This document shows, piece by piece, positions 19,276-39,300 of a stretch of DNA of 64,000 nucleotides. Every line of letters starts with the position of its first letter. The first letter of the stretch is position 1. The notes below the pieces were generated by a model, which saw only the letters and a program-made list of their open reading frames with translations, had not been told where the DNA came from and made no database searches. The stretch comes from an uncultured Clostridia bacterium (GTDB lineage Bacteria; Bacillota; Clostridia; Christensenellales; CAG-314), in NCBI GenBank assembly GCA_947586855.1, contig CANPXV010000002.1:57353-121352 (forward strand), in the 5' to 3' direction. Made by a program: the position numbers and the translations under genes.

Positions 19276-19540
19276 ATGGCCCACTGCGTGGGCCGATACG
19301 GACTCACCGCCACAGCCGTGCGCTCGGCTACGCTCGTCGCTGCGCTGCTGCTGCGGTGAGGTGTGTGTTACATGTTGTGGCAGGTAGGGGGAGGCAGATC
19401 GCCTCCCCTGCGGGGGAGCCTGACCTCTGACGGCTGAGCTCGTCAAGGTCGCCGGCGAATTTATCCCTCCCGCCCAAGGGCGTGAGCATAAAGCTCGCCG
19501 CTCTCTTGACGGTCACCCGCAGATGACGTTGCCTGCCTCT

Positions 19541-19984: not shown

Positions 19985-20879
19985 AAACTGTCCTCATAAT
20001 GTACTCTTGCAGCGTTTCGTCGCTGCCGGACTTTGCCCACTCCTTGCGCAGATCCTCGGCGTCCCCGGGATAGAAACCCCTGGGCGCAGACTGACGGTAG
20101 ATCTGTTTGCTTATCTCCAATTGAAGCTGCGCATCAGACTGCCGACCCTGCGCATGAGTGCCAAAGGAAAAATCCTTGGCTGTGCCCGGGAGAAATGCGT
20201 CAAAGTAACACGCCGATGTGTACGCCTCAAACACATTGCCCTCGTGGATATATTCCTCCCGGGAGTAGTTGGTCAAGCTGTCGTTATCCACGTACCGCTC
20301 CGCTGCTGCCAGGCTGTCCCAGCTTCTGAGAGAGAACCTCGACGCCAGAATGTTGCCCATGCGGTCATACTCATGTTCCAGCTTGTACACTTCCACTATG
20401 CGGCCGGCCAACTGACGGATATTGAGATCGCACAGCAGCAGCCGCTGCAAGTCCAGATAGATATCCAGACCGTAATGCCGGTGCTCCTCGTAGAACCTAC
20501 TCACCCAATCCGGCAGTGCCTTCTTGTCTTTGTTGCGGCTATTGTAATAACGTTGCACTTCGGTTAAGCCAATCACTGCGCCCGGCAACACATTTGTAAC
20601 CGGCACATAATCGTTTTCCAAACCGAGGTGGAAACCATCAACGTAAAAACTACTGCGCCACTTGTTGTAACCTACATGGGCGCTCACCGGGAAGTTGGTA
20701 TAAACCGGCGGAGTGGTCGGGAGAGTATAACCCAGGCGCTCATCCAGAGCGAGCACCCGGTCCCGACAGCTCCAAAGCAGCTCATAGGCCTCACGGCTGT
20801 TACCTAAATAACGCAGCATCTGACTGACCAGGTACGCCGTCTTGCCCGCCCCGGGCTTGCCGAATATTATAGTGATCAT
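19971..20879 (-). CDS. Zot/pI-like morphogenesis ATPase
   Basis: N-terminal GKPGAGKT; TEVQRYYNSR (DEAQ-like); HRHYGLDIYLDLQ..D.NIRQL typical of the Zot family; no TM segment seen. Confidence 0.85.
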   Translation of the reverse strand: MITIIFGKPGAGKTAYLVSQMLRYLGNSREAYELLWSCRDRVLALDERLGYTLPTTPPVYTNFPVSAHVGYNKWRSSFYVDGFHLGLENDYVPVTNVLPGAVIGLTEVQRYYNSRNKDKKALPDWVSRFYEEHRHYGLDIYLDLQRLLLCDLNIRQLAGRIVEVYKLEHEYDRMGNILASRFSLRSWDSLAAAERYVDNDSLTNYSREEYIHEGNVFEAYTSACYFDAFLPGTAKDFSFGTHAQGRQSDAQLQLEISKQIYRQSAPRGFYPGDAEDLRKEWAKSGSDETLQEYIMRTVYGAA

Positions 20880-22282: not shown

Positions 22283-22290
22283 AGCCCACC

Positions 22291-22857
22291 TCAAAAGACA
22301 ACATGATCGGGGACGACCTCGATGCCGGCAATGCCCCGACAGTAAAACATAAGTTCAAAGCAGTGCTTACCGTCGTGGCCCGTCACCACAAGCTTGTACA
22401 TGACTGCCTGCTGCGGGGCAAGAACTATTTGCACATCTCGCCCCGGATAGACAGCTTGCAGCATGTCCTCTAAAAACATGTCTTTGGCGTGCAGTTCGAA
22501 GCTGCTTTCGCCTTGGACAATACCAAATGCAGCGGAGACGTCTTTGCCCAGCAGCGTATCCAGATAACTGTGCGGCACACCGTCCACGTTATACACAAAG
22601 TCCTCCTCCGAGACCGGCACCACATACACGGTGTAGCCATGTTTCAGACCGAACTGCCTGACATCGAGGCGCACATCCCCCAGGCGGTACACAGCGTCCC
22701 GGTGCAGACGCTTCGAACCGGAAGAAAGGTACACGAACTCAAACGAAGTTGTGAACCAATCTGAATTGTAACCCCAGACGACCACAAAGACGGCACAAAG
22801 GATGACAAGCAAGACAATCGTGCAAATGGTAATTATTTTTTCTTCATGCTTGTCCAT
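22291..22857 (-). CDS. membrane protein with N-terminal TM (prophage)
   Basis: IITICTIVLLVILCAVFVVVW then SDWF; RBS GAGGTG. Confidence 0.65.
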   Translation of the reverse strand: MDKHEEKIITICTIVLLVILCAVFVVVWGYNSDWFTTSFEFVYLSSGSKRLHRDAVYRLGDVRLDVRQFGLKHGYTVYVVPVSEEDFVYNVDGVPHSYLDTLLGKDVSAAFGIVQGESSFELHAKDMFLEDMLQAVYPGRDVQIVLAPQQAVMYKLVVTGHDGKHCFELMFYCRGIAGIEVVPDHVVF

Positions 22858-22865
22858 AGTGCACC

Positions 22866-24032
22866 TCAGAACACCAAGTCAGTCAGACCACCGACAGATT
22901 GGACTGAAACAGTAAATATTGACTGGTCAAAACCGAGATTACTATATGTTTTAGACCAACCATCGCAAGAAATAGTTATGTTAAATTTATAATCTTTAGA
23001 AAAACAACTCCTACCCCACGTAGAGTCAACAGTCTTGCCGGAGTTAAAAGTGCACAAATGGTTAAGAATATCCAACGTAGGCTTAAAGTCTTTTAAATCA
23101 CTATAAGTTGCAGTATCCTTGAAGGATCTCACAATGTGACCACAAGAGCCTCGCTGACAAGCCTCTTGCCCCATATTGCATCTAATGGTAGCCATATAAC
23201 CATTAGCCATTGTCGGAAATTGAATAGAAAGAGAAGGGACTGCGCTATTGTCAATAGTCCCAATGGTATATGTTATTGATCCAGACGACGTTGTCGGAGG
23301 ACCAGATACATACATATTGCCAAAAGGCATACCATTTCCCTCAACAGTTCCGTCGGCTTTTAATATAAGCTTACCAGGTTGTCCGGCAATGCTAATCGTA
23401 GTTTCCACACCGGAAACTCTTTTTTTGTAGTCCACGTTGCAGGTTGCAAATTTGCTGTTGTCGTCACGAGAAGTGACCTTTATCTCAATCTGCTCGCCAA
23501 AAGCTTGCAAACATTGAACATTGGCCGTCAACGCACCGTCCTCGGTCGGTGTGACGGTAACATAGTCAGTTACAGTTTTGCCGCTTGCAAAAGCAGACGA
23601 CGGGTTCTTCCAGGCAATCGACCAATCGACCGCCTTGTTAGTGGCGTCGGAAGGGTCGATTGTTGCAGTCAACTGTTGCGCACTTTCGGCAATGGACATT
23701 ATGCCGTAGTCGCCGAACTGTTCACGAGGGATGGCAGCGCTCATGAGGCGGATGCCGTTATTGGCAGCTTGTGCAGACTGCATGCCGCCATTGTCATCCA
23801 CGACAGGCTCTACCTTTTCAACTTCACCGCCCGCTTTGGCCTCACCGCAACGGACGCAGAGGCCGTCCTCGCCGTAGTTATGACCAAAAAGACAATATTT
23901 GTTCCAGTTAGAAAACCAATCTGTCAATACGCCGGTTACTATTACCGCAATTATGAGCAGAATGGCCAGTGTTACTGCGATCCACTTGCGGTGGTCGCTG
24001 GCCGCATGGGCCCTGAATGAATAGTTACTCAT
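22866..24032 (-). CDS. membrane-anchored Ig-like (Big_2-type) protein (prophage)
   Basis: N-terminal TM then DWF; QLTATIDPSDATNKAVDWS Ig-like motif; RBS GGAGGT. Confidence 0.65.
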   Translation of the reverse strand: MSNYSFRAHAASDHRKWIAVTLAILLIIAVIVTGVLTDWFSNWNKYCLFGHNYGEDGLCVRCGEAKAGGEVEKVEPVVDDNGGMQSAQAANNGIRLMSAAIPREQFGDYGIMSIAESAQQLTATIDPSDATNKAVDWSIAWKNPSSAFASGKTVTDYVTVTPTEDGALTANVQCLQAFGEQIEIKVTSRDDNSKFATCNVDYKKRVSGVETTISIAGQPGKLILKADGTVEGNGMPFGNMYVSGPPTTSSGSITYTIGTIDNSAVPSLSIQFPTMANGYMATIRCNMGQEACQRGSCGHIVRSFKDTATYSDLKDFKPTLDILNHLCTFNSGKTVDSTWGRSCFSKDYKFNITISCDGWSKTYSNLGFDQSIFTVSVQSVGGLTDLVF

Positions 24033-24328
24033 TGTTTACCTCCATGTGATTTGTAAGCTTTTGTTTCGTCGATCACGTGCGATCGATATCCGGCACGATA
24101 TGCACGCTGCACCTCGGTAAGCTGCAACGGTTTGCCGTTTTTGTCCAACTTGACCTCGCCTTCGTTAGTCAGGCGGACGTTATGTTCCAACTCGTAAGTA
24201 GCCTTTGCAAACTTTCCGTGCGGATTGAGCAATGTCAGCTCTTTACCAGTTTCGTTGTTACGAACCCGGGTGCCGATCTGCTTGCCCCCTTTGCCTTTGA
24301 CAGGTTTCACCTTGTTCCATTTTGCCAT
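24029..24328 (-). CDS. small basic hypothetical protein (prophage)
   Basis: 99 aa, Lys/Arg-rich, RBS AGGAGGTG. Confidence 0.65.
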   Translation of the reverse strand: MAKWNKVKPVKGKGGKQIGTRVRNNETGKELTLLNPHGKFAKATYELEHNVRLTNEGEVKLDKNGKPLQLTEVQRAYRAGYRSHVIDETKAYKSHGGKQ

Positions 24329-24461
24329 TGAATAATCACCTCCTGATAGATATTTTTTACACCGCCCAACAGCACGGCGATGAATGGAAAAGGACTGTTT
24401 GGCACAATCCCTCAGAAGCCCCGCAGAAACCTATCGAGCTGCGTCTGCGGTCGCAACAATA

Positions 24462-24731
24462 TTACTTGACAATGTTTTTGACCACCACACTGTCGCCGAC
24501 TACCTCGACTTCAAGCTGCACCTGCTGCTCGTATCCCAATGTGCGGATATCCTCGGTAGTCCAAAAGGTGAGGATCTGAGGATCCAGATACATCCCTCGC
24601 TGCTTATCCGCAGTAGCAGATAAAAGCTTTTCGCCCTGGACGAACGTGTAGCAATACTTGTTAGTGTTTTTGGAGGCGGTTGCCGTTCTGCCCAAAAAGT
24701 TTGCGTTTACCAATGCTTTGATGCCTGCCAT
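24462..24731 (-). CDS. putative ssDNA-binding protein (pV-like)
   Basis: 89 aa, beta-rich pattern, first gene of the operon, RBS AAGGAG; function inferred from size and position only. Confidence 0.45.
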   Translation of the reverse strand: MAGIKALVNANFLGRTATASKNTNKYCYTFVQGEKLLSATADKQRGMYLDPQILTFWTTEDIRTLGYEQQVQLEVEVVGDSVVVKNIVK

Positions 24732-24898
24732 AGTGTTACATTTCTCCTTTGCCACCAACATTGTCGGGTGGACTTGATATATATTCCGGGTTACGCTCCC
24801 GGTGAACGTCTTAACGGGAACCCCCGATGGGGCACTCCATCGAGAGCAGATCTTCGAGGTATAAAGCTCAGTGCCGAGCCGAGGAGAAAACCCCTTGA

Positions 24899-24978
24899 TT
24901 TAGCAAAATGCTAAATCTACAAATATTATATTCAGCAAAATATTAAATGTCAAGACAAATATTCAAAGTTATGCTAAA
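24899..24978. promoter_or_regulatory. three 17-bp operator-like sites of the prophage switch
   Basis: perfect palindrome TTTAGCAAAATGCTAAA (24899), variants at 24931 and 24962. Confidence 0.7.
24925..24953 (-). promoter_or_regulatory. consensus promoter of the prophage replication/structural operon
   Basis: TTGACA-17 nt-TATAAT; the spacer is operator 2. Confidence 0.8.
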
Positions 24979-25001
24979 AATTTTACAAGAGGATAAAGAA
25001 A

Positions 25002-25319
25002 ATGATTAAAATTAAAGAATTACGGATAGAAAAAGGCTTGTATCAAAAAGATATAGCCAAATTGGTTAACAAAACAATTGCATGTATAAGCGATTGGGAA
25101 AAAGGAAATACCGAGCCAAGCATTAGCGAAATAGTTAAACTAGCAGATTTTTTTGAAGTTTCGACAGATTACTTGTTAAACCGCACAGACGACACCGGGC
25201 TGGTGGAAGTACACAGCGATCTGACACCGGACCAACAGGAGCTACTTGACTTGTACAACCGAATGAACTACCGGGACAAAAACCAATTACTCGGCTTTGC
25301 AAAGGGGCTTGTTTATTAG
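25002..25319 (+). CDS. XRE/Cro-CI family HTH repressor
   Basis: IKELRIEKGLYQKDIA..WEKGNTEPS..LADFFEVSTDYLL. Confidence 0.92.
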   Translation: MIKIKELRIEKGLYQKDIAKLVNKTIACISDWEKGNTEPSISEIVKLADFFEVSTDYLLNRTDDTGLVEVHSDLTPDQQELLDLYNRMNYRDKNQLLGFAKGLVY

Positions 25320-25355
25320 TACCCTTGTTCTACCGGGAAAAGGAGCCGGCAGAAC

Positions 25356-26543
25356 ATGAGAACAGAAAACTATCTAATAGCCCTCGAACGAATTGACGGC
25401 ATGCTGCTGCAAGTTATTGGTGCCATGAAGGCCGAAATTGTTAAGCAGCATCGGAACTCCGACGATCAGAACGGGAACCAAATGCAGATCGAAGGAGCGA
25501 AATTGACAAAAGTAGACATCAAAGGAATATCTGTTGACCACAAGATACGGAAAGACGGAAGATTTCAGGCCAGATACACATTGGAAGGAGTGCAGCACTC
25601 TGTATACGGAAAGACACCGGACGAGGCGCTGCGCAAAGCCATTGACGGCTACAAAGGAAAACGAAAAACAAAAACGCAAACGTCCACCTTTGCAGAGTGG
25701 TACAATCGCTGGATGACGCTATACAAAATAAAGAAGCTGCGACCCAACACCCTGAAAAGCTACAACTACACCACCAACAAGTATCTGAACCCAAGGCTCG
25801 GCAAGAAGAAACTAAACCAGCTTGACACTAACACGCTGCAAGAAGTACTGAACGATATAAAACGACCACGACAACAGCAGATTGCCGGGAATATTTTAGT
25901 CGCATGTATAACAAAAGCTTATACCAGCGGAGTTATAAAAACAAACCCTGCACTGGGTATTGAAAAGACGCAGCACCACTACAACGAGCGTCGAGCACTG
26001 ACAAGCGAGGAAATGCAACGGCTGCTTGACACTATACATGGGGACAAGTTCGAGCTCCTGATATACGTCTATTTATATGCCGGACTGCGCCGATCGGAAG
26101 CGTTGGCGCTGCGATGGAGCGACATAGACATGCAAAAACAGACGATAACGGTGCGACACCAGGTAAACGAACAGCGGGAGCTGACGGAAACCAAAAGTGA
26201 CAAAGGCAACAGAACATTGCCGATACTGCCCCCACTGCTCGACAAGCTGAAACAACAAGAGCAACACGGAGATTTTTTGTTTACCTGGCGTCCCTCCTTG
26301 GTAACCCACGAATTGCGAGTTCTGTTTGACAAGCTCAACATGCCGGACATAAATGTACACTGCTTACGACACACTTTCGCAACAATGCTGAAAGACATGG
26401 GCATACCGGAAGATTTACGAACAAAATGGATGGGACACAGCCGGCTGGAACACAAAGATCGCTATGAACACATCCGTGAGGAGTATGAGGCCAAACAAAC
26501 AGAACTGCTGCGACACAAATTTGACACTAAAAGTGACACATAA
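25356..26543 (+). CDS. tyrosine integrase
   Basis: arm-binding RKDGRFQARY..YGKT; catalytic GLRRSE, HCLRH, MGH, RY. Confidence 0.93.
   Translation: MRTENYLIALERIDGMLLQVIGAMKAEIVKQHRNSDDQNGNQMQIEGAKLTKVDIKGISVDHKIRKDGRFQARYTLEGVQHSVYGKTPDEALRKAIDGYKGKRKTKTQTSTFAEWYNRWMTLYKIKKLRPNTLKSYNYTTNKYLNPRLGKKKLNQLDTNTLQEVLNDIKRPRQQQIAGNILVACITKAYTSGVIKTNPALGIEKTQHHYNERRALTSEEMQRLLDTIHGDKFELLIYVYLYAGLRRSEALALRWSDIDMQKQTITVRHQVNEQRELTETKSDKGNRTLPILPPLLDKLKQQEQHGDFLFTWRPSLVTHELRVLFDKLNMPDINVHCLRHTFATMLKDMGIPEDLRTKWMGHSRLEHKDRYEHIREEYEAKQTELLRHKFDTKSDT
26510..26543 (+). repeat. integrase arm-type sites (TGACAC motif x3)
   Basis: 12-bp periodicity, overlapping the int stop codon. Confidence 0.65.
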
Positions 26544-26620
26544 TATAACCAAAATACAAGAAAAAGGGACTGTTTTGCGATAAAATAGCCCCTTTTTGTT
26601 AAAAAAACAAGCAAAATATC

Positions 26621-26678
26621 CTTGGAAAGCGTGCGAGGTTAACAGCCTCCGCAGGTTCAAATCCTGTTCTCTCCGCCA
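26621..26678 (+). repeat. right att copy (3' 58 nt of tRNA-Ser)
   Basis: identical to 17987-18044. Confidence 0.95.
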
Positions 26679-27064
26679 AAGCAGAATAATACGAACCCGA
26701 CAGATACTGTTGGGTTCGTATTGTTTTACGCAAATGATTGGTTTGGGGTTGTTGTTTCACAATAAAAAGTCATTTACGGATGTTGCGGGGTAAACTTGTA
26801 GCGTTCTTTTCATTCCTCCGTTTATTTGCCTTTCGGTGGTTGGTTGTAGCACGGCTCTCGCAGGCGTCAACGGGAGAAAAATTTGCATATAATTCGTAAA
26901 CAGTAAAGTGTCGGGCAGTAGTATGCTGTTCGGCACTTTTGTTATGCAAATTTTTCTTGGCTCATTCTTCGCCGTTGACGTCTGCAAGGAGATATGCAAG
27001 ATAGTAATACACACCGAGCTGCGCTCCTCCCGTACTTGCCGAAAGGCAAATATCTTGACGGAGG
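26671..27064 (+). repeat. cassette end, copy 1 (CTCCGCCA, hairpin, long nested palindrome)
   Basis: 26671-26836 matches 28076-28240 directly; ~26860-27051 matches ~28228-28415 in reverse complement. Confidence 0.85.
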
Positions 27065-27073
27065 AAATATAAA

Positions 27074-27385
27074 ATGACAAGAATCGATGAAAGGCAGGTA
27101 ATTACGGCGGACAATGTGAAGTGGCTCGGCGAGATGATCGCCCTTATGTCTGCCAAAAACAGTGACAAGATGTTTTGCCACAGCAAGGTAACGCAATTGT
27201 ATCGTGGGTTGATAAGCGATATATTCTACAATAATCAAAAAGAACTTTCAAAGTCAGACGAGATATTTGAAAGGACAATGCACGAAGTAGATAAAAATTA
27301 CGCTCATAAAGATGAGAATTATATTCCGACAGAGATAACTAGAAAGTCCATCGAGGGCACATTTTACAATTACGAACGAAGGTAA
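27074..27385 (+). CDS. hypothetical protein, possibly truncated or chimeric
   Basis: RBS GGAGG is part of the inverted repeat; the 3' end overlaps Mrr-homologous sequence in another frame. Confidence 0.4.
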   Translation: MTRIDERQVITADNVKWLGEMIALMSAKNSDKMFCHSKVTQLYRGLISDIFYNNQKELSKSDEIFERTMHEVDKNYAHKDENYIPTEITRKSIEGTFYNYERR

Positions 27386-28049
27386 AAATGTCGTAAATAA
27401 AAACGTAACTAATTTAAATTCAAAGTATTTGAGAAAATATGAGTCTTTTTTAGAGTTTCAAAATCTTTCACATAAGCAAGAGTCTGTCAAAGAAGATTTA
27501 ATTGAAGATAATGAAAAAGATTCACAAACTCCTTCTGAAAAGATGATAGCGTATTACGAAATAATAAAGAAAAGCGTTTGTGATGATTTGTTAAACAAAG
27601 TAATTGAACAAACACCAGATTTTTTTGAACAACTTGTTGTAGATTTAATTGTTGCGATGGGGTATGGTGGCAGTGTTGAAGATGCTGGAAGGGCAACCAA
27701 AAGAACAAATGACGAAGGAATTGATGGCTTAGTAAAAGAAGATAAATTGGGTTTAGACACAATTTATATTCAAGCAAAAAGATGGCAAAAGGGGAATATA
27801 GTTGGTAGACCAGAGATACAAAAGTTTGTCGGTGCTCTTGCAGGACAAGGAGCAAGTAAAGGTATTTTTATTACAACGTACAATTTTTCTAAAGAAGCCC
27901 TTGATTATAAGCCAAGAAATGACACATCCATAATTTTAATCGATGGACAAAAATTAGTAGAATTAATGTATGAATATGATATTGGTGTTAGTAGAGAAAA
28001 ACGCTTTGATATAAAAAGGATAGACAGCGATTATTTTGAATCTATATAA
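27339..28049 (+). pseudogene. mrr: Mrr-type restriction endonuclease lacking most of its N-terminal domain
   Basis: FFEQLVVDLIVAMGYGG, DEGIDG, IYIQAKRW, GIFITT, ILIDG motifs; frame opens after a stop at 27336 with no start codon or RBS. Confidence 0.8.
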
Positions 28050-28075
28050 TATTATATCGTTTTACATTATAGCCG

Positions 28076-28424
28076 CTCCGCCACAGCAGAATAATACGAA
28101 CCCGACAAGAGCTGTTGGGCTCGTATTGTTTTATGCTAACGATTGGTTTGGGGTTGTTGTTTTACAATAAATAGTCCTTTGCGAACGTTACGGGGTAAAC
28201 TTGTAGCATTCCTTCATTCCTCCGCATATTTGCCTTTCGGCAAGGACGGGAGGAGCGCAGCTCGGTATAAATTGTTTTATTGCATATCTCGTTGCAGACG
28301 TCAACGGCGAAAAATGAGCCCAGAAAATTTGCATAACAAAAGTGTCGAACAGCATACTACTGCCCGACACTTTACTGTTTGCGAATTACAAGCAAATTTT
28401 TCTCCCGTTGACATCTGCCGAAAG
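28076..28424 (+). repeat. cassette end, copy 2 (inner segment in opposite orientation)
   Basis: second CTCCGCCA, same hairpin and spacer, then the reverse complement of the copy-1 inner segment. Confidence 0.85.
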
Positions 28425-28537
28425 ATATGTAGGGATACCGGCACACCGAGCCAAACTCATTCGCGGGCCGCATCGTGCGCACGGTGCTATTTGGTCGACA
28501 CCTCTACGGCGTCCTCTGTTGCAGACTTGGCGGCGTC

Positions 28538-29617
28538 TCAATTGGGAGCGCCTTCTCCGCTTGTCGGCTTGGCAACAGTTGCGGCAGCTTGCAAAAAAGT
28601 TGGTTCGGCAGATTTCTTTTTGACGGTACGCTTGGCCAATCCCTTGTCGATAAGCTCGACAATGCCCTCATAGGGGAGATAGAAATCTTCGGCAACACGC
28701 TCGATACGTTTTCCGCCCACCTTTTCCATAACTGCGGCAAACAGCTCAAAGGCATAGTGGGTGCGCCTGTCGTTTTTTAACCGATACATGCAGGGAGTAT
28801 CCGCATACGCAGTTGTCTCCGAAACGTCCTCGACCTTGTACTTGCTGTCGGTGTAGTCGGCGGCGTTGAGGGGGAGATAAATGCAAAGAGTGTTGCCCCG
28901 ATAGCCGAGGCGTGCAACTACTTCTCTGCCCAAACGGAAAGTTTCGCGCTTCCAACTTGTGCGGGCCTTTACCTTTTTGTAGGAGAGCATCTCGTTTTTT
29001 AGCGCCGTATATCTGTTTTTTACGTCGTCGCTTGATTGGATATACTTGGCCATAAAGCTCTTGTTGTAGCGCAAAACACCCTCGTAGGATTCCTCTTCGG
29101 GGGCAATGGGCTCACGCCTCTGCACAATGACCTCCTGTGCGGGTTCTTCGTGCGGTTCCTGTACGGGCTCTTGGGTGGACTCTTGTGCGGGTTCGGCAAT
29201 CGTGATGGCATAGTAGGTTGCCTTGTCCTTATACCTGACGATGACATTCGTTCGGCCCGTCTCCTCCATGTTGGGTTTGATGACATACAATCCGCTTGCT
29301 GCACCTGCCTCGGTGAGGCGCACAAGCTCCTCTTCCGTGAGGACGTCGAACAGCGAAAGCGCCTCCGACTTGGGATTGCGATTATAAACGGCATTGACAA
29401 GCAGACCCTCGCAGGAAAATTCTTCGCCGAAGGAAAACTCCGACTTCACATCTTTGCAATCGGCAACGATCTCCACAAGTTCGCGATTGCCCCTTTGTTT
29501 GCGCCTTTGATTGCGCACGGTCCAGACGAGAAGCACGACAGCCGCCACGAAACATGCGGCAGCAACAGCGCACACGACAAGCAAAATGATAAGCTCTGTT
29601 GAATTGACGAATAACAT
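28538..29617 (-). CDS. membrane-anchored protein with Ig-like and uncharacterised C-terminal domain
   Basis: N-terminal TM; FSFGEEFSCEGLLV.AVY Ig-like start; EP-rich linker; RBS AAGGAG. Confidence 0.7.
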   Translation of the reverse strand: MLFVNSTELIILLVVCAVAAACFVAAVVLLVWTVRNQRRKQRGNRELVEIVADCKDVKSEFSFGEEFSCEGLLVNAVYNRNPKSEALSLFDVLTEEELVRLTEAGAASGLYVIKPNMEETGRTNVIVRYKDKATYYAITIAEPAQESTQEPVQEPHEEPAQEVIVQRREPIAPEEESYEGVLRYNKSFMAKYIQSSDDVKNRYTALKNEMLSYKKVKARTSWKRETFRLGREVVARLGYRGNTLCIYLPLNAADYTDSKYKVEDVSETTAYADTPCMYRLKNDRRTHYAFELFAAVMEKVGGKRIERVAEDFYLPYEGIVELIDKGLAKRTVKKKSAEPTFLQAAATVAKPTSGEGAPN

Positions 29618-29620
29618 TTT

Positions 29621-32600
29621 TTATTCTCCTTTTTTGTTTTTCTTTCTTGTGATTGCCAAAATGATCAGTGTTCCGACACCGAGCAGCGAAATCGCCGTTG
29701 CGGCGAGCAGAATGGGGAGATAGGCGACGCCGTCCACAGTAAACGTGTACGCCGAAAGCCCGTCCGCCTCAAACACTATGTAGTCACCGTCACGGGTGTA
29801 TTCGACTTCCGCCGCTCGGCCAACGCTTTGCAACGTAAAGTTTTTGTCTCTGAACTCTTCGGGGATGAGAAGCTGCACGGTCACTTTGCTATCGAGCGGG
29901 ACTTCCGCACCGTTTTTCATAAGTTTCAGAGTGTATTTTTCGGAAAGTTGGTCTCTTTCCCACGCCCAGGAGGTGCGCATGATATTGTCTGCTCCATCGC
30001 ATATAAGTTTCAATGCGGGATCGAATCCGTCTGCGCTGTCAACAATTACATTGGGCAAGTTACTACCGGGAAATGTGTATTCAAGGCGTGTCACAAGATT
30101 GCCCATGCTCACAATGGTCAGAGTTGCGGTCATTGGGTTAATGGGGTTATAATTCTGCGCATCGCCCTCGAAAGTAGCCGTTACGGTGTATTTGCCGACC
30201 GCCTTTTGATCGTTGCCTTCGTAGGTCACGGTCACGCCTTTCGGCAAATCACCTTTGATGGCGATGCTGTGCGCCTGTCCGTCGTAATCCACGGTGACGT
30301 CCTTAAAGGTCACACCCGACATAACGTAATCGGCTTTTGTTATCGTAAAGATGAGAATGATCTCCGCCTCATCGCTCGTTGCCCACTTGAAGTTTGCGCT
30401 GTCCGTAAGCGTGAGTTTGACGTTATAATCGTTCGCATCGATTCCGCCGTTGTTCTCGGTCACGTTATAGAGCAGGGAGGTCTGAACGTCCGCCGTCTGC
30501 GTCACCCCGTTATAAACTTTGCTTGCGATCGTCGGCGCAGTCACCGTCTGTTTTTCGACAATGTAGACATGCGTCTTTGTATCCTCATTGAGCGTATAGT
30601 TCTTTGTCTTGGGGTTCGTGCCATCGAGCGCCGCCTTGAATGCATAGCCCCCTGCGTTCTGGAATGTCTGTGCGGAGTTGCTTAATGCGACCAAAAGCGT
30701 AAATGTGCCGTCGCTACCGATACCCGTCGCAGTCGCAGTAGGAAGATTGGTGAATGCCGTTCCTGTGTAGATATAACTTTCGTCGCCCCAAACAGCTTTG
30801 ATCTCTTTCGCACGTACCGTGAGCGTTCCCGTTTTGCAATTAAAGGCATAATTCTTATCCGAGGAAAGCTCTTTCGGCGTAATGACGTATTCGCCAGCGT
30901 CATCATACGCCTTATACCCGCCGTAATCAAATGCCAAAGTACCCGTGAGATTGCTCTCGCCCTCTCCGTTCACAAAGCCGCTGTACGTTACACCGCCATC
31001 GGAAGGCGAATCGCCGTAAGTAATTTCCTTGTTGTTCGCCGTCACGGTGAGCGTTGCCTTTGCGATGGCGTACTCGAACGTCTTGCCGCCGTGCTCGTTT
31101 GCAAATTCCACATCATAGTCCGAATTAGAGCACATTGGAGTGACGGGATAGGTGCCAGCAGGTGTGCTTATGCTCGGCACTCCGCTCATCCCTTGCAGAG
31201 AATAGGAAAGGCCAAGGACTTCGAAATCATCATCACTCTTCGCCTCATTTTGGGCATACCAAGAACCGACTGCGCCCTCCGTCGCACGGGAGGCGGTTGC
31301 CGTTACCCAACCTGTGTGGGCTTCCCCGTAGGTCGCCCCTTCCTCAAAGGTGAGCGTGACTTTTATTTTTCTTGCCGAAACGGTGAAACTCGGGTTGCCG
31401 CCAGTCCACGCAAACGTAAGATAATTTGAAGTATTTTTGTCCTTGACGGCGACGTAGAGATGATAGGTGCCTAGTGGCAGATTGTCTACCTTTTCCGATT
31501 GCGAGCCGCTTTCGTGCAGAATGCCGTCCTCTGCAACAGTGTAAATATCGTCGTCTGCAACGGTATTGTCCTTGCGAAGATAGAAAATAAAACTATCAAT
31601 ATTGTCTTTGAAGTCTTTCGTTTTGTCTCTATCGAGTTGCCCTATTACTTTTTGGATGCCAGAGAGGATATCTTGTTCGAAGCCCTCTTTCGTGTGGGCG
31701 ACGTCACCGTACTCCACGCCCTTTTCAAAGCCCACTCTTGCCGCCTCGCTCAGAGTGATCGTCAGCTCTTCTACCGCAATGTGGACAACAAAATAATCAT
31801 AGCACGGGTTGTGGTTGCCCTCGGTATCCGTTGCCTTGAAATATACGACGTAGAACATCGGCTCTTTCGCAGTCTGATCTGTGAGGGCATTGTAATCCTT
31901 CCACTCTGTGGCATGTCCCTTTTTCAGCTCATCGAGATAGCTCTTTATCGTAGCTTCGTTATACTCTGTTTCTCCATATTTCCGGACGATATACTGTATC
32001 TTAAGTTTGCTTATGGTGTCCCCGTACCACGCAACATCCTTCCAATTGATGGGGAATGTTTTATCGGTCGGGTCGGGCAGTTTAAGTTCGATCGGCTCCA
32101 TACCCAAACTGTAAACGAACTCCCGCTTCTGTTCAAGTCTCTCGTTATTGAACACCCCCGATCCATTGTTGTTGAACGTCACCATCATATCGGCGGGCAC
32201 GACGGTATATGTAACGGTGATCTCGTTATCTGTGCCGTCATTCCATTTGAATGTCTCTGGGGATTCGGCGCTTTTCTCTGCGGGTTTGACGCTCAGTTTG
32301 TATTCGCCTACTTTTTTCGCCGTAATGGTATGCATCTTATCGTCATACCAACTCTCATCTCCGTCATTTGCAACGGCGGAGATCTCTACCATGTCTGTAT
32401 CTACGAGTCTCCATTTCACACCGTCGGGGGAGTAGGTCTTTGTTTCATTCTTCCAACTATCTTTATCGAGTATCGCAGTGCGCGCGGCGGCAGTCAGATT
32501 GAAATGGATCGCAGGACGCACCCCGCAATTTGCGTTGTTCACAACGAAATTAGCGTAATTGCCAGAAGTGTCGAGTTGGTACGTGCGTTGCGCAGAGAAG

Positions 32601-32870
32601 TAAACACCAGAGCGGAGCCAACAATGGCCCATCCCGACACCGCTGTTTGCGCTTCGGAGAGACGCATCGGTATCCCACATGCCATCGCCGATCCCGCTTG
32701 TGCTACCGTTGGACATGCCCGTTTCCGTCAAAGAGGGAAGCCAAAGGCAGTCGTTTTTCCACGCGTCGTATGCCGTTTCGTCCTTCCCCTTACTGCTGTA
32801 CACGTTCATTGTGACGCCGTCTTTCGTATCCCAATCTGCGTTGTCTGTTTCTTTGTTCGGCGTACCGTAG
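29621..32870 (-). pseudogene. large surface protein (DUF6273-like, MBG/Ig-like repeats, C-terminal TM), apparently 5'-truncated
   Basis: WLPS..E, WLRS..GVRPA motifs, ITYGD..YSGFVNGE MBG-like repeat, C-terminal TM plus KKNKK; no signal peptide or RBS, reading frame runs up into the recombinase terminator. Confidence 0.6.
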
Positions 32871-32883
32871 AATATTCCACGAA

Positions 32884-32908
32884 CAAAGGGCCGCAACAAG
32901 GCCTTTTT
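32884..32908 (-). terminator. terminator of the short recombinase gene
   Basis: AAGGCC-TTGTTGC-GGCCCTTTGTT on the - strand just after the stop. Confidence 0.5.
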
Positions 32909-33811
32909 TTATTGCAGCTGTTTGCCCAAGCGGTTCATCATTGTACGCTTGTGCTCCAAAAGGCTGTGGACGTACAAATCAAGCGTGATCGTGGGGCTTT
33001 TGTGACCGAGAATTTCCGACAATGATTTGACATCCATGCCACATTCCAACGCACGTGTTGCAAACGTATGTCGCAGAGAATGAAACCCCAGGTGCCGTAT
33101 TTGCAGCTTTTTCAGAAGCAGCTCGAACGTGCGCTGATAGGAACGCACCGAGACGGGGTCGTCTCCGCCGACAACATACCTGCCGGACGAATCTCGCTTG
33201 GCCTTTTTGAGAATGTGCAGGATCTGATTGGGCAGAGGGATGACCCGCACCGATGTTTTTGTTTTGGGCGGCTCGATCAGCTTTTTGTAAGCGCCGTTAT
33301 CCCAACTGTCGTGACACGACTGTGTGACGGTGAGCAGCCCCTCTGCAAAGTCGATATTATCCCACGAAAGAGCCATCAATTCTCCGATACGCAAGCCTGT
33401 GTACAAACAGAGCAAAATCCCCACAAGTTTTTGGTTGCCGCTTTGCAAAACGTAGCGCTCGATTGCCCGTTGCTCGTCTTTGGTAAAGCACTCTGCTTGT
33501 TTCTTTTCGGGCTTGGGACGGATTATCCCGTTGGAGTGTTGCCGTTTGGCCGCACCGTAAAGCACCGCCTGTTTAAGCGATTTTTTCAGTACGGAAATGA
33601 TAACATTGACTGTATTTGGCGAAAGCGATACCGTCATACTCGCCACAAATCCCTGCAAAACGCTTGCAGACAGCGTTTCCATCTCGTATCTGCCAAGTTG
33701 GGGAACAAGATGTGTTGTGCAGATACGCTCGTATTTTTCGTAAGTGCGGGCTTTTGTTGTGGGACGCACGCAGACTGCCAGCCACTCCGAAAGCCATTTG
33801 CGATATTTCAT
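32909..33811 (-). CDS. short tyrosine recombinase (no arm-binding domain)
   Basis: GLRIGE, HSLRH, LGH, LYVH catalytic motifs; ATG 33811 with GGAGG RBS. Confidence 0.9.
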   Translation of the reverse strand: MKYRKWLSEWLAVCVRPTTKARTYEKYERICTTHLVPQLGRYEMETLSASVLQGFVASMTVSLSPNTVNVIISVLKKSLKQAVLYGAAKRQHSNGIIRPKPEKKQAECFTKDEQRAIERYVLQSGNQKLVGILLCLYTGLRIGELMALSWDNIDFAEGLLTVTQSCHDSWDNGAYKKLIEPPKTKTSVRVIPLPNQILHILKKAKRDSSGRYVVGGDDPVSVRSYQRTFELLLKKLQIRHLGFHSLRHTFATRALECGMDVKSLSEILGHKSPTITLDLYVHSLLEHKRTMMNRLGKQLQ

Positions 33812-34017
33812 TGTATGGCCCTCCATTATAGTACTTTTATAGATTTTAAAGTAATTTAACAAAAATACGCAAATAATTACGGATCATTGGACCGCCTGAA
33901 AGGTGCGACATACGTCAAAACGCACTACAGGTGCTAAAAAAATTTACCAAACTGCTGATTTTTGAGATATTTGTGTGCGTGCGGCTTGTTGCTGCGGGAC
34001 GTCAAGCGGGTCTGCGC

Positions 34018-34046
34018 TTGCCAATAGTTGCCGAGTGTGCTACAAT
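34018..34046 (+). promoter_or_regulatory. sigmaA promoter of the phosphotransferase gene
   Basis: TTGCCA-17 nt-TACAAT with TG extension. Confidence 0.55.
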
Positions 34047-34187
34047 CTATCCGGGACGGACGCAGCCACTGCGGGGCGCACAGGCAGACGGCGACGACGG
34101 GCAAAACGGGGCAGGTTGTCGGCCGTGGGGCGCACCACTGCCATCCAAGCGGCGAGTAAACGTGCGCAAAACCCCAAAAGGAGAAAA

Positions 34188-35186
34188 ATGGATACTTACG
34201 AACAACTGCAAAAATTGATTTTACAAAACGGCCTGGGCACCAAAATAGTCTCGGTGCAGACGGTTGCGGGCGGACTGACGCACAAAATGTATCGTGTGCA
34301 AACGGACAGGGCCGTCTACGCAATCAAGGTGCTGGACCCCGCCATAATGCGCAAAAAAGAGGCTCTTGGCAACTTTGATTTTTCCGAAAGGGTGGCCCGC
34401 ACAGCCGCACAAAACGGGATACACGCCGTTTGCGCACTGCAATTGGGCGGCAAGGTTGTGCAAAATGTGGACGGGGCGTTTTTGATGGTGTTTGAGTGGC
34501 TGGACGGCACGTCGCTGCGGCCCAAACAGGTAACGTTGCGCCACTGCAATGTCATCGGGCAAACGCTGGCCAATCTGCACAACACGGATTTTGGCGCATT
34601 GGGGGATACACCGCCGCAAAGCACGGCCACGCAGCCGCATTTTGACCGCTACATTGCGCAGGCACATCAACAAAACAAGCCTTTTGCGCAACATCTGCAA
34701 CGGGATGCGACGATGCTATCCGAGTGGGGCGTACGGGCAACGGAGGCAATGGACTGCCTTGGCGGCGAGACGGTCATCAGCCACACCGACCTCGATTGCA
34801 AAAACGTGATGTGGCAGGGGCTGACCCCGTTTGTGATTGATTGGGAGGCAAGCGGCCGCATCAACCCCGCCGCAGAGCTTGTGCAGGTAGCCTGGTATTG
34901 GGCGGGCGGCGATGTGGAAAATCTTCGCCAAAACAAGTTTGAGGCGGTGCTGAACGGCTACGTCGGGACGTATCGGGGGCGGCTGCACGGCTGCTGCGAC
35001 CTTGTGTGCGCCAATCTGTACCCAAAGTTAGCCTGGCTGCAATACAACCTGAAACGGGCGTGCGAGGGGACGGGGCCGACAGAGCTTGCCGACAGCGAAG
35101 TGACAAAAAGCCTGCAAGAGATTGAATATTGCGTCAATCAGATTGACGCTGTGATGCACATGCTGCAAGCGGTTTTGTGGCTGTGA
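34188..35186 (+). CDS. aminoglycoside phosphotransferase (APH)/choline kinase-like family protein
   Basis: GG-x-x-H..AIK, Brenner motif HTDLDCKN, IDWE; RBS AAGGAG. Confidence 0.8.
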   Translation: MDTYEQLQKLILQNGLGTKIVSVQTVAGGLTHKMYRVQTDRAVYAIKVLDPAIMRKKEALGNFDFSERVARTAAQNGIHAVCALQLGGKVVQNVDGAFLMVFEWLDGTSLRPKQVTLRHCNVIGQTLANLHNTDFGALGDTPPQSTATQPHFDRYIAQAHQQNKPFAQHLQRDATMLSEWGVRATEAMDCLGGETVISHTDLDCKNVMWQGLTPFVIDWEASGRINPAAELVQVAWYWAGGDVENLRQNKFEAVLNGYVGTYRGRLHGCCDLVCANLYPKLAWLQYNLKRACEGTGPTELADSEVTKSLQEIEYCVNQIDAVMHMLQAVLWL

Positions 35187-35347
35187 GCGGAAAGAGTAAC
35201 ATGTGCGGTTTGTAATGCTTGACGCCTTGTCATTACAAAAACACGCCCACGATTGAGCGGCAAAGCAAACAAGTGGCAAAAGAAAAAAAGAGTTCACTTT
35301 GCGTGGACTCTTTTCTGTTGTGATTGCGCCGAACCCTTTTCCGCATG

Positions 35348-35917
35348 TCAAACGGCGGTGTGGTCGCGTGCGGTATTTTTGCGCACAAAAATCGCCTTGA
35401 ACACTGTTCGCACAAGGGGCTGGATGAACAGCAGCTGCAAAAAAAATGCAAAGGGCAGGTTGTAGCAAATCAACTTTAACCAATTTGCGAGCAACGTTGC
35501 AAAATTGAACGTCGAAACGCCATACGGGTAGTACATGATGGCTGCAAGCAAGCTCATGGACGGGCACATGAGCCCCACCGTCGCAATTATTATTGCCGAC
35601 TCAAAAATAACAGGGTGCACGCTGCCCGGCTTAAACACACGGCACACCAGGCGGAAGCTGCACGGACTACCCAACACACATTCGAGGGTATAGGCGAGGG
35701 CAAATTCTACAAGTATTACCGCCCAAATGGGTATTGGGTGACCGAAAACGGCCACGCCTCCCATTGCGTTGATTGCGGCAATGACGCTTGGCTCTCCCGT
35801 GAGCTGCATAAAGGTGGCGCCGTTGATGACGTACAAGCTGTAAAACACATAGCCGTGCACCGTTATCACCACGGTGATGAGGGCAAAAATCATACGTTGA
35901 AACAAATTTTTGGGCAT
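35348..35917 (-). CDS. DUF2798-like membrane protein
   Basis: MPKNLFQRMIFALITV, N.P.AFF.QLLFIQPLVR..F pattern; multiple TM segments. Confidence 0.65.
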   Translation of the reverse strand: MPKNLFQRMIFALITVVITVHGYVFYSLYVINGATFMQLTGEPSVIAAINAMGGVAVFGHPIPIWAVILVEFALAYTLECVLGSPCSFRLVCRVFKPGSVHPVIFESAIIIATVGLMCPSMSLLAAIMYYPYGVSTFNFATLLANWLKLICYNLPFAFFLQLLFIQPLVRTVFKAIFVRKNTARDHTAV

Positions 35918-36151
35918 AATTCCTCCAAATCGAAAAAAAACACATGTCCTCGCCTGCGCAAACCGAATGCGGAACGTGCCGTGATCAGATTTATATGCGC
36001 AAGGCAAAACATGTGTCGTTTTCCGAAAATATTGATAGTTGAGCTTTATTTTACATCAAATTTGACATTTTTGCAAACGTTTGACGGAAATTTGCGCCAA
36101 AGACAAAGCGATGGCAAAATGCCACCACAAACATTCGGACAAAACAAAATA

Positions 36152-36181
36152 CCCAGCCAAACCCTTGCGGGTTCGACTGGG
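36152..36181 (-). terminator. probable original tRNA-operon terminator displaced by island insertion
   Basis: CCCAG..AACCC-GCAA-GGGTT..CTGGG followed by a U-rich run, directly after the duplicated tRNA 3' end. Confidence 0.55.
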
Positions 36182-36188
36182 CACTGTA

Positions 36189-36214
36189 TGGTGGGGAGTA
36201 CAGGGCTCGAACCT
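36189..36214 (-). repeat. att copy (3' 26 nt of tRNA-Val)
   Basis: TGGTGGGGAGTACAGGGCTCGAACCT, identical to 42418-42443. Confidence 0.92.
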
Positions 36215-36233
36215 CTCAACGACTTATTCAAAA

Positions 36234-36281
36234 CCACAATATATAGCATAATATTTGCTATCTAAACACAATATATAGTGT
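36234..36281. promoter_or_regulatory. tandem NrdR-box-like palindromes
   Basis: CCACAATATATAGCAT and ACACAATATATAGTGT, 32 bp apart. Confidence 0.5.
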
Positions 36282-36293
36282 TTTGGCAAATCG

Positions 36294-36313
36294 TACCCCC
36301 AATTTACCCCCAA
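36294..36313 (+). repeat. arm-type sites TACCCCCAA x2
   Basis: same doublet at 42299-42319. Confidence 0.65.
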
Positions 36314-36373
36314 CTTTAATTCCTTAATTAAATATGTTTTTCAATGTTTTTCACGACCTTTTAGGGCGTCAAG

Positions 36374-39300
36374 CTAAGATGCGGTTACAGCCTCATGAAA
36401 TTTGGGAGTGACTCGATAGTAAGGTTGCTTAGTTCTATTGATTCGGCGAAAATCCAGCAAATCTTGCGCCTTTAATGCTAACAATAGATTTTCAACACAC
36501 TCATTTTGAGGTATTTTTATATGGTCGTATGTCATATACAGTTGGTTCCATCCTTCTCCCAGCGATTTTATATAAGCAATGTATTTACCCTTCTCTTGCG
36601 GAATTTTAATGTTAGAAACACTCCATTGCAATAATAGCATCTTATCCTCGGCATCCATGACAACAGAAGTAAATTGCCATAATATATCTGTTGGAACACC
36701 TCGAACACGTTTAATAAAGAACATCCGATATGCTTCAGCATAATCCCCAATATCTATTATTGATGCACATTTTTCAATCAGCATTTCTTTGATACTATCA
36801 TTAGCATCAGATTTCATGACCTCTCCCAAAAGATTATTGATTTGATTTCTACGATTATTGTCATATTTTGTGAATTTTGCAGGCAAAGCGCAATCGAAAA
36901 ACGCATCAAAATCCGTCAATATCTGTTGGGTATTTTTCTTAATATACATCTCGCAACTATGCGGGATTAAAATTAACCGTTCTAAATCATCAGAGCAGTA
37001 AACAAATTGTCCCAACTCAATAGCTACCGCAAGATTTTTATCAAATATATCCGTACCCTGTTCCTGAACAATTTTCGCCATATTCAACTGACTTAATTTA
37101 TAACTAACATCAATCATGTTTAATAATGATCTTATACCCTTATTTGCCGATTGATAGAACTTCAAAATGTCCACATATAGCGCCAATGCCTTTTCTCCTG
37201 TTTGGTCAACAACACAAATAAATTCTCCACCAACTTCGTTATTAACAATGTAGTTTTCCACCCCTTTTTCACGGTATCCTATTACACTATGCGCAAAAAT
37301 GACATTCTCCCATTTGGGCACCACTTTTTTCTCTGCGAGTAATGTATAAAACAGACCTGTGTCATACTCTGCTATGTTTGTAATTTGAATTATGCACTTT
37401 TTAATGATTGCCTCACGATTTGCCAATTCAATATTTTCATTTTTGAGAAGTTCTTCAACATTCTCTTGCAATTCCTCTGTCAGCGTTATTCCCTTTTCTA
37501 GTAAAATAGTAGATACATAGTCATTTATATTCTGCATTATGTAATCCAAAACACATTGCTTTTTAGACTGCTTTATGAAGCTAAAGTTCCCCGAATAAAA
37601 TTTCTGCGATTCTTGTGTTCCGTCCTTTATACCATATATAATCGTCAAATTCTCCAATGTCAGTACATACCTATTATTCTCTATAATATATTGTTGAATC
37701 CTATTGTTTAAAGGCTCCTTACTGATGTTGTCAAAAATCAAATTTAACTCTCTAATAGCGTTAATCGCCTTATCCTCCCCCGCGAACAAAAAAATATTCA
37801 TATAGTTGACAGTCTTTACAAGGTAATTCGACAGTTGATGCTCACAGTCATGCGCTATGTAGTCACTCGAATATTTTATTACACAACCCACCAATAATTC
37901 TTTTTTCTTCTCCGGTAGCTTGTTAGATGAAATCAATGTACTGCAAAGCGTGCAACGTTTATCAATTATCTCTTTCAAAAGCTTCTCTACTTGCATTTCA
38001 TCCGCAAGAATTACATATTGTTCAATTGCATCAAAAACCCTAGAATCGGAGGAATTTTGCAAATATGTAATCAAAATATCGCTTTTTTGAGTATGTTCAC
38101 GTTTATCAATTTCCGCTATATCATCAATGCTATCCAGCATTGTTTTGTTTAGTATGGCAGGACGCTTAAAATCTTCCTCATCAAGTCGTGCAACCACGCT
38201 TTTAATATCATTTGGAGTATATGCAAAGTCTTGTTTCCCGATTTGAATATCTGCTGCAAATTGTGCATCTTGCGGAGTTATTAATTGCGACTTGTAATTT
38301 GAAGTATACTCTTTATAATGTTCATCAATAAAACCATTCAACACGAGAAACTTAAGATATCTTATCTGTTCATCCACTTGTTTCTCCAGATTAATTTTTT
38401 TATCATTACCATCATCGCATGATTTTAATTCCAAGCCATAGCTAGTCAAATATTGTTTTTGAAGATTATCATCAAAACAGTTTTCCATACCCAGTCGATC
38501 CACCAGTTCAGCAAACGAGTATCCTTCTATTTCCATTTTCTCTTTTTGTAGGTTGGCAATCGACCTTCTGACAACATCACCATTGTTTTTAATTTTTTCA
38601 ATTATTGTTTTTTCTCTATCGGCATAATGCTCACCACTGGGCGTGAGGAGTTCGCCCTCTCCATTTGAAATAGAAATATAATACCCTTTGTAGTAAGGAT
38701 GCTCTACTTTCTTATGGTTCAATCCGATAAACGAGAAATCTTTGTCCATAATGTCATCGCTTGTCACCTTGTCGCCAGCATAGGTCCCTCGCGACTGATG
38801 ACATGCCTGTCCTAAAAACATATATTTTAATTCTGAAATTGATTCTAAACATTCTTTATTTATCTTCTCCAATATTTTATTGGTTTCTTTTAGTTTTACA
38901 TCGAGATCCTCTAATAATTCCTGCTTCATTTTTTCCGTATCAACGACCATGGGTATAAGACCCAAACCTTGCTCAAGAAATGAATAGTCATAAGGGAACA
39001 GATTTTTATAAAGCGAAATGGCAAAGAGATTCTCATTACTCAATGAGCCCGCCTTCACATCGGAGTCTTCAAATATTTTACTGTACATAATGACATAATC
39101 ATTCAAAGTGTTATTAAGAATTCGCATATCCGGAATATATGCTGATACACCCTTTATAAACCTGTCTTGAAGTCCCATTTTATCATTTTTCTTTGTACAA
39201 TTGTCTATTTGTTTTCTCAGTTCTTCTGCGGTAGTTACAGGATTTATAATGGGAACAATAGGCAAAATAAAGTCGAAGAATTTTGCTCGTTCTTCCTCTG

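Follow-up and report, generated by a model that had tools for sequence, protein, structure and literature searches.

A probable array of decayed mobile units in tandem behind a tRNA-Ser gene in an uncultured Clostridia bacterium

Introduction

Tandem decaying islands behind tRNA genes are already well known, and the tandem islands at ssrA in Dehalococcoides are said to be a comparable case. In the accretion model, such tandems arise by integration, decay to a remnant flanked by attachment (att) sites, and further integration (PMC5704250). The Islander survey counted 125 tandems among 3919 islands in tRNA and transfer-messenger RNA genes, and crossovers within tRNA genes are known from three subsites, namely anticodon loop, T loop and T/acceptor junction (PMC4383910). 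Here, we analyse a stretch of 64,000 nucleotides (the window) from an uncultured Clostridia bacterium of the Christensenellales (assembly GCA_947586855.1, contig CANPXV010000002.1, positions 57,353 to 121,352). Two related units follow a displaced end of its tRNA-Ser(GGA) gene, each headed by the last nucleotides of the tRNA and a conserved hairpin. In our reading, to which we give a probability of about 0.6, mobile units with a specific insertion site at the very last nucleotides of tRNA-Ser have accumulated here in tandem and have then decayed.

The array shares many traits with the tandem accretions that include cis-mobilizable elements (CIMEs), i.e. those of ICESt1/ICESt3 and of the streptococcal integrative and mobilizable elements at tRNA-Lys (PMC5704250). 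There, as here, units lie head to tail at one tRNA 3' end, older units have lost genes and keep both ends, and an unrelated element (here a prophage) uses the same tRNA. In the window, too, the direct repeats that head the two units take in the last nucleotides of the target gene. In contrast with these systems, the identity with the tRNA is here restricted to its last 6-8 nt, complemented by an element-borne hairpin, four tRNA-Ser isoacceptors are used, and in none of the units did we identify a cognate integrase, a relaxase or an oriT. The islands of Islander are likewise inserted in a site- and orientation-specific manner at the 3' side of small-RNA genes, and tandems occur among them. The logic of that survey calls for a displaced fragment of the tRNA gene (tDNA) from a classical subsite and for one integrase per island, whereas here the fragment has the size of CCGCCA and most units lack an integrase.

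Integrons and clusters of attC sites lacking integron-integrases (CALINs) resemble the array in having variable, often defence-related cargo parted by a hairpin-containing junction of ~110 nt, and cassettes without a recombinase. They differ in several respects: there is no IntI here, the junction is conserved in sequence and is not a structure-only attC with R and L boxes, the primary site is a tRNA end instead of attI, and the units hold multi-gene operons and a regulator. Integrative mobile elements exploiting Xer (IMEX), such as CTX, TLC and others, make use of the host XerCD at dif. They too are recombinase-less elements in tandem at one short chromosomal site, and our genomes have filamentous-phage-type Rep genes nearby and abundant Xer-like recombinases, but the site is not dif.

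The hairpin junction behind tRNA-Ser genes

The target gene, tRNA-Ser(GGA), lies at 17956-18044 on the forward strand (ARAGORN and Rfam tRNA) and has the 3' terminus ...TCTCTCCGCCA. An 8.6-kb prophage (18045-26620), which encodes a 395-aa tyrosine integrase with a Phage_integrase domain (25356-26543), sits between two 58-nt repeats. The displaced 3' part of the tRNA gene (26621-26678, forward strand) is the attR of this prophage and a 100% direct repeat of 17987-18044. The last 8 nt of attR (26671-26678) are also the first CTCCGCCA of the array; on the forward strand, this 8-mer is found at 18037, 26671 and 28076. The original prediction, made from the letters alone, had noticed CTCCGCCA at the latter two positions, each followed by a similar block of ~160 bp. 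We retrieved both observations and all the motifs quoted with them: positions 26671-26836 align to 28076-28240 as a direct repeat of 166 bp (CTCCGCCA plus 158 nt), with ~87% identity and a period of 1405 bp. The count of the 8-mer alone is not significant (5 matches versus ~2 expected); the 166-bp block clearly is.

We named hp the first ~60-80 nt (about 72) after the CCA, i.e. a 19-bp hairpin and its tail. The first hp block of the array occupies 26679-26750 on the forward strand, with the hairpin at 26685-26725, a T-rich tail and GATTGGTTTGGGG. The remainder of the direct repeat, which we call A2, follows together with a 23-nt spacer at 26751-26859 and includes a left inverted repeat with CCTCC (26808-26836). 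The second copy of hp and A2 takes up 28084-28240 on the same strand (hairpin 28090-28130, left inverted repeat 28213-28240).

We aligned 31 copies of hp from ~15 genomes of the genus. A CCGCCA-type end immediately precedes hp in all 31. This is the genuine 3' end of a tRNA-Ser in 13 copies, which cover the isoacceptors GGA, CGA, GCT and TGA, and a duplicated tRNA end behind a mini-insert of 170-280 bp in another 7. In 10 copies, it is a right end (RE) of ~30-35 nt that is not a tRNA, belongs to one of five sequence types and finishes with CCGCCA (once TCGCCA). The remaining copy is old and diverged, and follows CCGCAA. Among the 38 tRNA genes assembled in the genome of the window, the CCGCCA terminus and hp are found in serine tRNAs only, and hp also stands behind the remaining assembled tRNA-Ser loci. 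The placement is precise and orientation-specific, directly after the CCGCCA of four tRNA-Ser genes, and the tRNA stays intact. Judging from these alignments, hp is a junction tied to tRNA ends. The opposite possibility, that it behaves as an ordinary dispersed repeat, was not borne out, since hp lies at a CCGCCA-type end in every aligned copy.

In the hairpin, 92.5% of the cells are paired, against ~40% in slid controls, and 4 pairs are changed on both sides, a figure reached in 0 of 500 shuffles. The mean column identity of hp is 82%. Two positions of the hairpin are G.U in most copies, and as a consequence the structure exists only on the strand of the tRNA. By its position and strand, it could act as a terminator of the tRNA. 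The T tract is weak (TTGTTTT), and a terminator scan called the inner stem of copy 2 only, not copy 1. An Rfam scan of 17500-36500 returned tRNA only, with no RNA family matching the repeat block or the palindrome (B) described below.

Under the array reading, a circular form with an RE-CCGCCA-hairpin joint would recombine with the CCGCCA of tRNA-Ser, and the crossover would lie in or beside the hexamer. We place it there because the four tRNAs share little else and a deeper crossover would swap their differing acceptor strands. Conservative site-specific recombination of this kind would leave the tRNA intact and provide it with the hairpin of the element. A later unit would then enter the same junction, giving the order tRNA, unit n, unit n-1, and so on; in the window, unit 2 would have come first and unit 1 afterwards.

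The prophage occupies the anticodon-loop subsite, with its 58-nt repeat, and the hp units a fourth, terminal position, with 6-8 nt, in agreement with the predicted distinction between the two sites. The mini-inserts, with duplications of 20-37 nt, fit the T-loop or the T/acceptor-junction subsite. A displaced tDNA fragment in the sense of Islander was found for the prophage and the mini-inserts, at the lengths just given, and not for the hp units. Mini-inserts lie between tRNA-Ser and hp in the genome of the window (L004:1220-1507, C28; L005:1570-1760, C1) and in G034:C38, G034:C44, G030:C54, G032:C87, G038:C1 and G031:C16. They are flanked by duplications of the cognate tRNA 3' end, and their right part (...GATGTAGCGC.CC...CTCGG...GAGAC) is common to them. 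In appearance, these inserts are minimal scars, with att sites on either side, left by another family of elements, which would use the T-loop or junction subsite. At least nine non-serine tRNA genes of the genome of the window (Asn, Arg(CCG), Arg(CCT), Pro(CGG), Pro(GGG), Val(CAC), Val(GAC), Gln and Met, C34) carry, within ~20 nt downstream, a common motif of ~45 nt that ends in GTCGCAAC(A/G)GAAAGG..ACAC. The mini-inserts behind tRNA-Ser start with this motif too.

Anatomy and decay of the units

The units have a common anatomy. The left hairpin comes right after CCGCCA and is followed in many units by A2, palindrome B and a gene that we call sigma-like. Then comes variable, often anti-phage cargo, and an RE of ~30 nt closes the unit with CCGCCA. 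From hp and A2 onward, the module is contiguous and of unchanged order in six relatives, in which the stretch from the tRNA end through B continues into an intact sigma-like gene of 210 aa. The contiguous module is found in a single orientation behind tRNA-Ser GGA, CGA and GCT, and truncated behind TGA. B and the sigma-like gene also occur behind tRNA-Val with a variant hairpin. At L036:8563-9249 (G039:C37), behind tRNA-Val(CAC), the base of the stem (ATACGAACC/GGTTCGTAT) is kept and the interior differs; this variant is present in G031, G037 and G039.

A palindromic segment of ~200 bp had been predicted to follow both blocks in the same form. It is indeed present twice, but the second copy is reverse-complemented: copy 1 (26860-27066, 207 bp, forward strand, canonical orientation) matches 28217-28418 (reverse strand) only as the reverse complement, with ~90% identity. 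On either side of copy 1 lie inverted repeats of 29 nt (26808-26836 and 27039-27067). The RNA of 26679-27090 is predicted to form a single long hairpin (-175.5 kcal/mol, z = -11.4), at the base of which the CCUCC of the left repeat pairs with the GGAGG in the right repeat, ahead of the ATG at 27074. In homologues with ~45% protein identity, this architecture with a buried ribosome-binding site is kept and the sequence is not (fold z = -6.5). This argues that B is a functional leader of the sigma-like gene, in which the ribosome-binding site is buried.

The 210-aa protein belongs to a small, unnamed family with 11 cluster representatives, one of them from a Christensenellaceae metagenome-assembled genome (MAG). 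It has no match in Pfam, NCBIfam or PHROGs, its sequence profile retrieved only spurious ubiquitin-repeat hits from the PDB, and its AlphaFold model (predicted local distance difference test 66) gave no fold match in a Foldseek search of the PDB. The resemblance to clusters of the sigma-70/extracytoplasmic function type was seen solely in a protein-language-model Atlas, and the label sigma-like should be taken as a lead, not a finding. We rejected the idea of a small serine recombinase, as the protein has no Resolvase match and a largely helical model.

Unit 1 (26679-28083) has suffered an internal deletion and keeps both ends, which makes it a CIME-type remnant between two att sites. Its ORF (open reading frame) of 103 aa (27074-27385, forward strand) starts with the first 55 codons of the 210-aa gene (to 27240) and goes on with unrelated AT-rich filler. 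The Mrr cargo that the original prediction assigned to this unit is present, although truncated at its 5' end (27334-28049, forward strand; ORF 27429-28049; Pfam Mrr_cat 3.7e-33). The gene lacks ~80 N-terminal codons relative to the full-length Mrr of G036 (Mrr_N and Mrr_cat), and its GC content is 31%, against 53% for the genome. The RE (28052-28083, forward strand, ~30 nt) closes with CTCCGCCA at 28076-28083. A sigma-like stump and a truncated Mrr between preserved ends indicate that unit 1 is a deletion derivative. Contigs from another rabbit sample diverge upstream of 27334, and in three other rabbit samples, the match of Mrr contigs ends exactly at 28083, the final base of CTCCGCCA. The Mrr, RE and hp of the window are collinear with the locus of G036 (69% nucleotide identity), which shows that the RE travels together with its cargo. 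When the DNA of the Mrr cassette was searched against 301 genomes of this order, only distant Mrr genes were retrieved.

Unit 2 (28084 onward) is truncated within the palindrome, which was also flipped between the 29-nt inverted repeats. The unit has no spacer, no clear right inverted repeat and no sigma-like gene. Past the truncation point lies a unique spacer with 60% GC (28419-28537). The unit had been predicted to carry surface proteins and to end near a short recombinase. These genes exist downstream on the reverse strand, but no RE or copy of a tRNA end marks an end near 33900, and the membership of the operon at 28538-33862 in unit 2 is unproven.

We rejected an assembly duplication as the origin of the two copies, because they differ by 13% and unitigs span 27205-28114. 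These Logan unitigs, from the likely source sample, have zero mismatches over that interval. This makes the artefact raised as a counter-explanation by the original prediction unlikely.

Cargo between the junctions

As proposed in the original prediction, we searched the repeat end across related genomes and catalogued the cargo, and retrieved ~15 genomes with mostly defence-type genes. Upstream of the non-tRNA REs, the majority are type I, II or III restriction-modification (R-M) systems, Mrr, AbiE, AbiTii and others. For example, an RE follows a C5-methylase, an Eco47II endonuclease and DUF6414 in G035 and G032, type I HsdM/HsdR in G029, type III Mod and AbiTii in G037, and an N6-methylase with KilA-N in G034 and G037. 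The full-length Mrr precedes an RE in G036, AbiEii precedes one in G035, and a Schlafen-like helicase with KilA-N and Ymh precedes one in an Oscillospiraceae bin. Downstream of intact sigma-like genes, the content is variable: type III R-M, an Hsp70/AAA operon, a nucleotidyltransferase, PcfJ, and large leucine-rich-repeat or Flg_new surface proteins. Ten further contigs encoding the sigma-like protein also have variable cargo, and none is circular by inspection of the gene order.

A single RE type of ~35 nt closes four unrelated cargoes, and the RE of unit 1 is homologous to the one that follows Mrr in G036 and to those that follow DUF6414 in G035 and G032. Two species share the R-M/DUF6414 unit with 99% identity over 4.1 kb, but with different neighbours past the junction; the mismatches of this comparison pile up in the RE and in hp.

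Independent arrival and horizontal spread

The copies of the window are not the product of a local tandem duplication, as each is nearer to copies in other genomes than to its neighbour. The nearest match of copy 1 is in G034 (92.6%) and that of copy 2 in G029 (89%), against 87% between them. These figures exclude a local duplication and show that related elements arrived repeatedly at this specific site. The predicted repeated capture of related elements at the tRNA 3' end is in line with this, with the CCGCCA-type end before each of the 31 copies of hp and with the arrays of relatives that carry other cargo. Other genomes hold different elements at the equivalent tRNA-Ser site. A synteny comparison with eight genomes of the same genus that have a bare tRNA-Ser(GGA) revealed no conserved flank. 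The Logan contigs contain a single joint that goes back, from 28189 to 26799 with 14 letters between; it looks like a hybrid copy and not a circle.

The left module also moves between distant bacteria. A 71-kb contig with 28.6% GC, from a bin classified as Bacilli, has tRNA-Ser(CGA) followed by hp, A2, B and the sigma-like gene at the identical nucleotide. This left module is 92% identical over 587 nt, which in a bacterium of another class indicates horizontal transfer. The prolyl-tRNA synthetase of the bin is 52.6% identical to that of the genome of the window (53% GC), and core DNA identity of the latter to the nearest genomes of its own genus is merely 74-86%. A GTDB-wide scan for the exact hairpin gave matches only in MAGs from the rabbit gut (Lapin), and scans for the exact hairpin in IMG/VR and the JGI metagenomes gave zero.

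Recombinases and rival explanations

Several results weigh against a site-specific array. The block of 6-8 nt shared with the tRNA falls outside the three classical subsites, and unit 2 has no RE or tRNA-like end anywhere in 28419-36300. All genomes are fragmented MAGs, and their contigs often break just past the sigma-like gene. Scans for tyrosine recombinases (PF00589) in the genome of the window and five relatives, and for serine recombinases (PF00239) and Y1 transposases (PF01797) in the same genome and four relatives each, revealed no regular companion of the arrays. The array contigs G035:C21 (32 kb) and G029:C24 (23 kb) have no tyrosine recombinase, and the integrase that adjoins the module in G034 is unique within the genus according to an orthologue search. 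Finally, the 317-aa tyrosine recombinase found 4.5 kb past the distal end of the array belongs to a multi-copy family, mostly far from hp.

There are three kinds of candidate for the enzyme of the array: this 317-aa protein, the 395-aa prophage integrase, and the large serine recombinases found near some members. None co-occurs consistently with hp. An orthologue of the 317-aa protein, with 57% identity, is placed likewise by a module of B and the sigma-like gene, behind tRNA-Tyr in a Christensenellaceae MAG. Among the ten further contigs, a recombinase stands beside the module in three, and the kinds differ (tyrosine in L075 and L080, large serine in L077). In the close 210-aa cluster, this is the case for 0 of 7 contigs. 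No recombinase is consistently linked to the arrays. The moving enzyme probably either acts in trans or was lost from the assembled units, all of which would then be remnants. In other genomes, a motif (GCGTGTGCTTGKCTT) forms direct or inverted repeats around modules of B and the sigma-like gene and around recombinase genes (L080:3717-5018, 4 copies; L075:19330-19389, an inverted pair in the interval between recombinase and Rep; L034:6255-6269; L054:4684-4698). In L080, it flanks the module in the manner of att sites; it is absent from the window.

If a recombinase acts in trans, the RE-CCGCCA-hairpin might be the site of an undescribed cassette system of rabbit-gut Bacillota, which would dock on all tRNA-Ser ends, stack defence and surface cassettes and cross classes. 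We regard this extension as rather doubtful. A true cassette platform with integron-like function, in which a dedicated trans-acting recombinase shuffles single cassettes between the primary tRNA-Ser site and cassette-borne RE-CCGCCA-hairpin sites, possibly via the folded single-stranded hairpin, is in our view unlikely. Such a platform would account for a conserved junction of ~110 nt (RE, CCGCCA and hp) that parts unrelated cargo units, for cassettes without an integrase of their own, for a strand-specific hairpin with G.T pairs and for the presence of the same ~35-nt RE type on four cargoes. It would not account for the lack of an integron-type integrase and of any recombinase at a fixed place relative to the arrays, nor for a hairpin whose sequence is conserved (82%) and which each unit carries on the side facing the tRNA. 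Moreover, the units are multi-gene and often include a sigma-like regulator, which makes them look more like small elements than promoterless cassettes, and at most three junctions per array were seen. The original prediction called the site integron-like. As a statement of membership this fails: the 317-aa recombinase scores 54.3 bits with the integron-integrase model TIGR02249 (cut-off 265) and 34.6 with PRK15417 (cut-off 435), no recombinase is consistently linked, and the hairpin is not of the attC type. The hp block has no GTTRRRY box by inspection and the Rfam scan of the region contained nothing attC-like, no dedicated attC model having been run. What holds is an analogy of layout.

The ~1-kb anchor formed by hp, A2, B and the sigma-like gene is 90-97% identical among genomes, which is sufficient for homologous exchange, and the contig breaks right past the sigma-like gene indicate many alternative continuations. 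One could therefore imagine a recombination hot spot in which cargo is swapped by homologous recombination after DNA uptake, the second copy of the window having arisen by unequal or illegitimate recombination. We find this improbable, because it leaves unexplained the ~30-nt cargo ends that close exactly with CCGCCA before the next hp, and the insertion at the same nucleotide behind four tRNA-Ser genes and, without flanking homology, in a bacterium of another class; the copies of the window are also not each other's closest relatives. A programmed invertible switch, in which the 317-aa recombinase flips B of copy 2 to control the neighbours and the repeat is a duplicated switch instead of an element end, seems very improbable to us. 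The 29-nt inverted repeats and the occurrence, within one genome, of both orientations of the ~200-bp segment between them would suit it, as would the Xer-like recombinase 4.5 kb away and its orthologue beside the module of a distant MAG. But in each of the 14 other loci examined, B and the sigma-like gene have the same relative orientation, and the flipped copy lacks its right repeat and its gene. In four other loci, B is truncated at position 54-56 or at the centre, as an unstable long palindrome behaves. The flipped and truncated copy 2 is best read as damage to such a palindrome, not as a switch. The least probable explanation in our estimate is a single-strand peel-and-paste movement by an HUH/Y1 enzyme (of the IS200/IS605 type or like palindrome-associated transposable elements), with CCGCCA as the target and the left hairpin recognised in its folded single-stranded form. 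In its favour, the elements always insert 3' of one and the same short sequence, without target duplication beyond the element's own end, and the strand-specific hairpin begins 7-8 nt past the cleavage point. Relatives have genes for Y1 transposases, and Rep (HUH) genes lie near some arrays. Yet the genome of the window has only one Y1 fragment, of 47 residues and on another contig, the REs have no matching hairpin by inspection, and units of up to several kb carry multi-gene cargo without tnpA or tnpB. The Y1 genes of the relatives are on unrelated contigs.

The array of tRNA-Ser units has distinctive features among tandem islands. Its landing point at the extreme end means that any of four serine tRNA genes serves and that the tRNA is never split. 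The left module (hairpin, palindromic leader and sigma-like gene) is common to units that finish with short tRNA-like REs, and most units have anti-phage genes and no integrase. If a trans-acting enzyme services the junctions, this would be a new route for the assembly and exchange of defence islands in gut Bacillota, and the conserved junction would also ease finding such islands in metagenomes. A cassette system, if real, would represent a functional analogue of integrons built on a tRNA end. If the units are simply conventional islands that have decayed, the locus is an ordinary case of the well-documented accretion process.

Genes downstream of the array

The operon at 28538-33862 is encoded on the reverse strand and is convergent on unit 2. 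It comprises the 317-aa tyrosine recombinase (32909-33862), a 1092-aa surface protein with MBG domains (29621-32899) and a 359-aa protein (28538-29617). The combination of a recombinase, a very large surface protein and the 359-aa protein is a multi-copy module in the genus, with paralogues at G000:C1:82287-82751, C8:4111-4608, C1:116687-117984 and C29. Further downstream, a stretch of ~115 nt (36099-36214) has copies with ~90% identity at many loci in related genomes, and contigs from other samples pass from position 36194 of the window into tRNA sequence.

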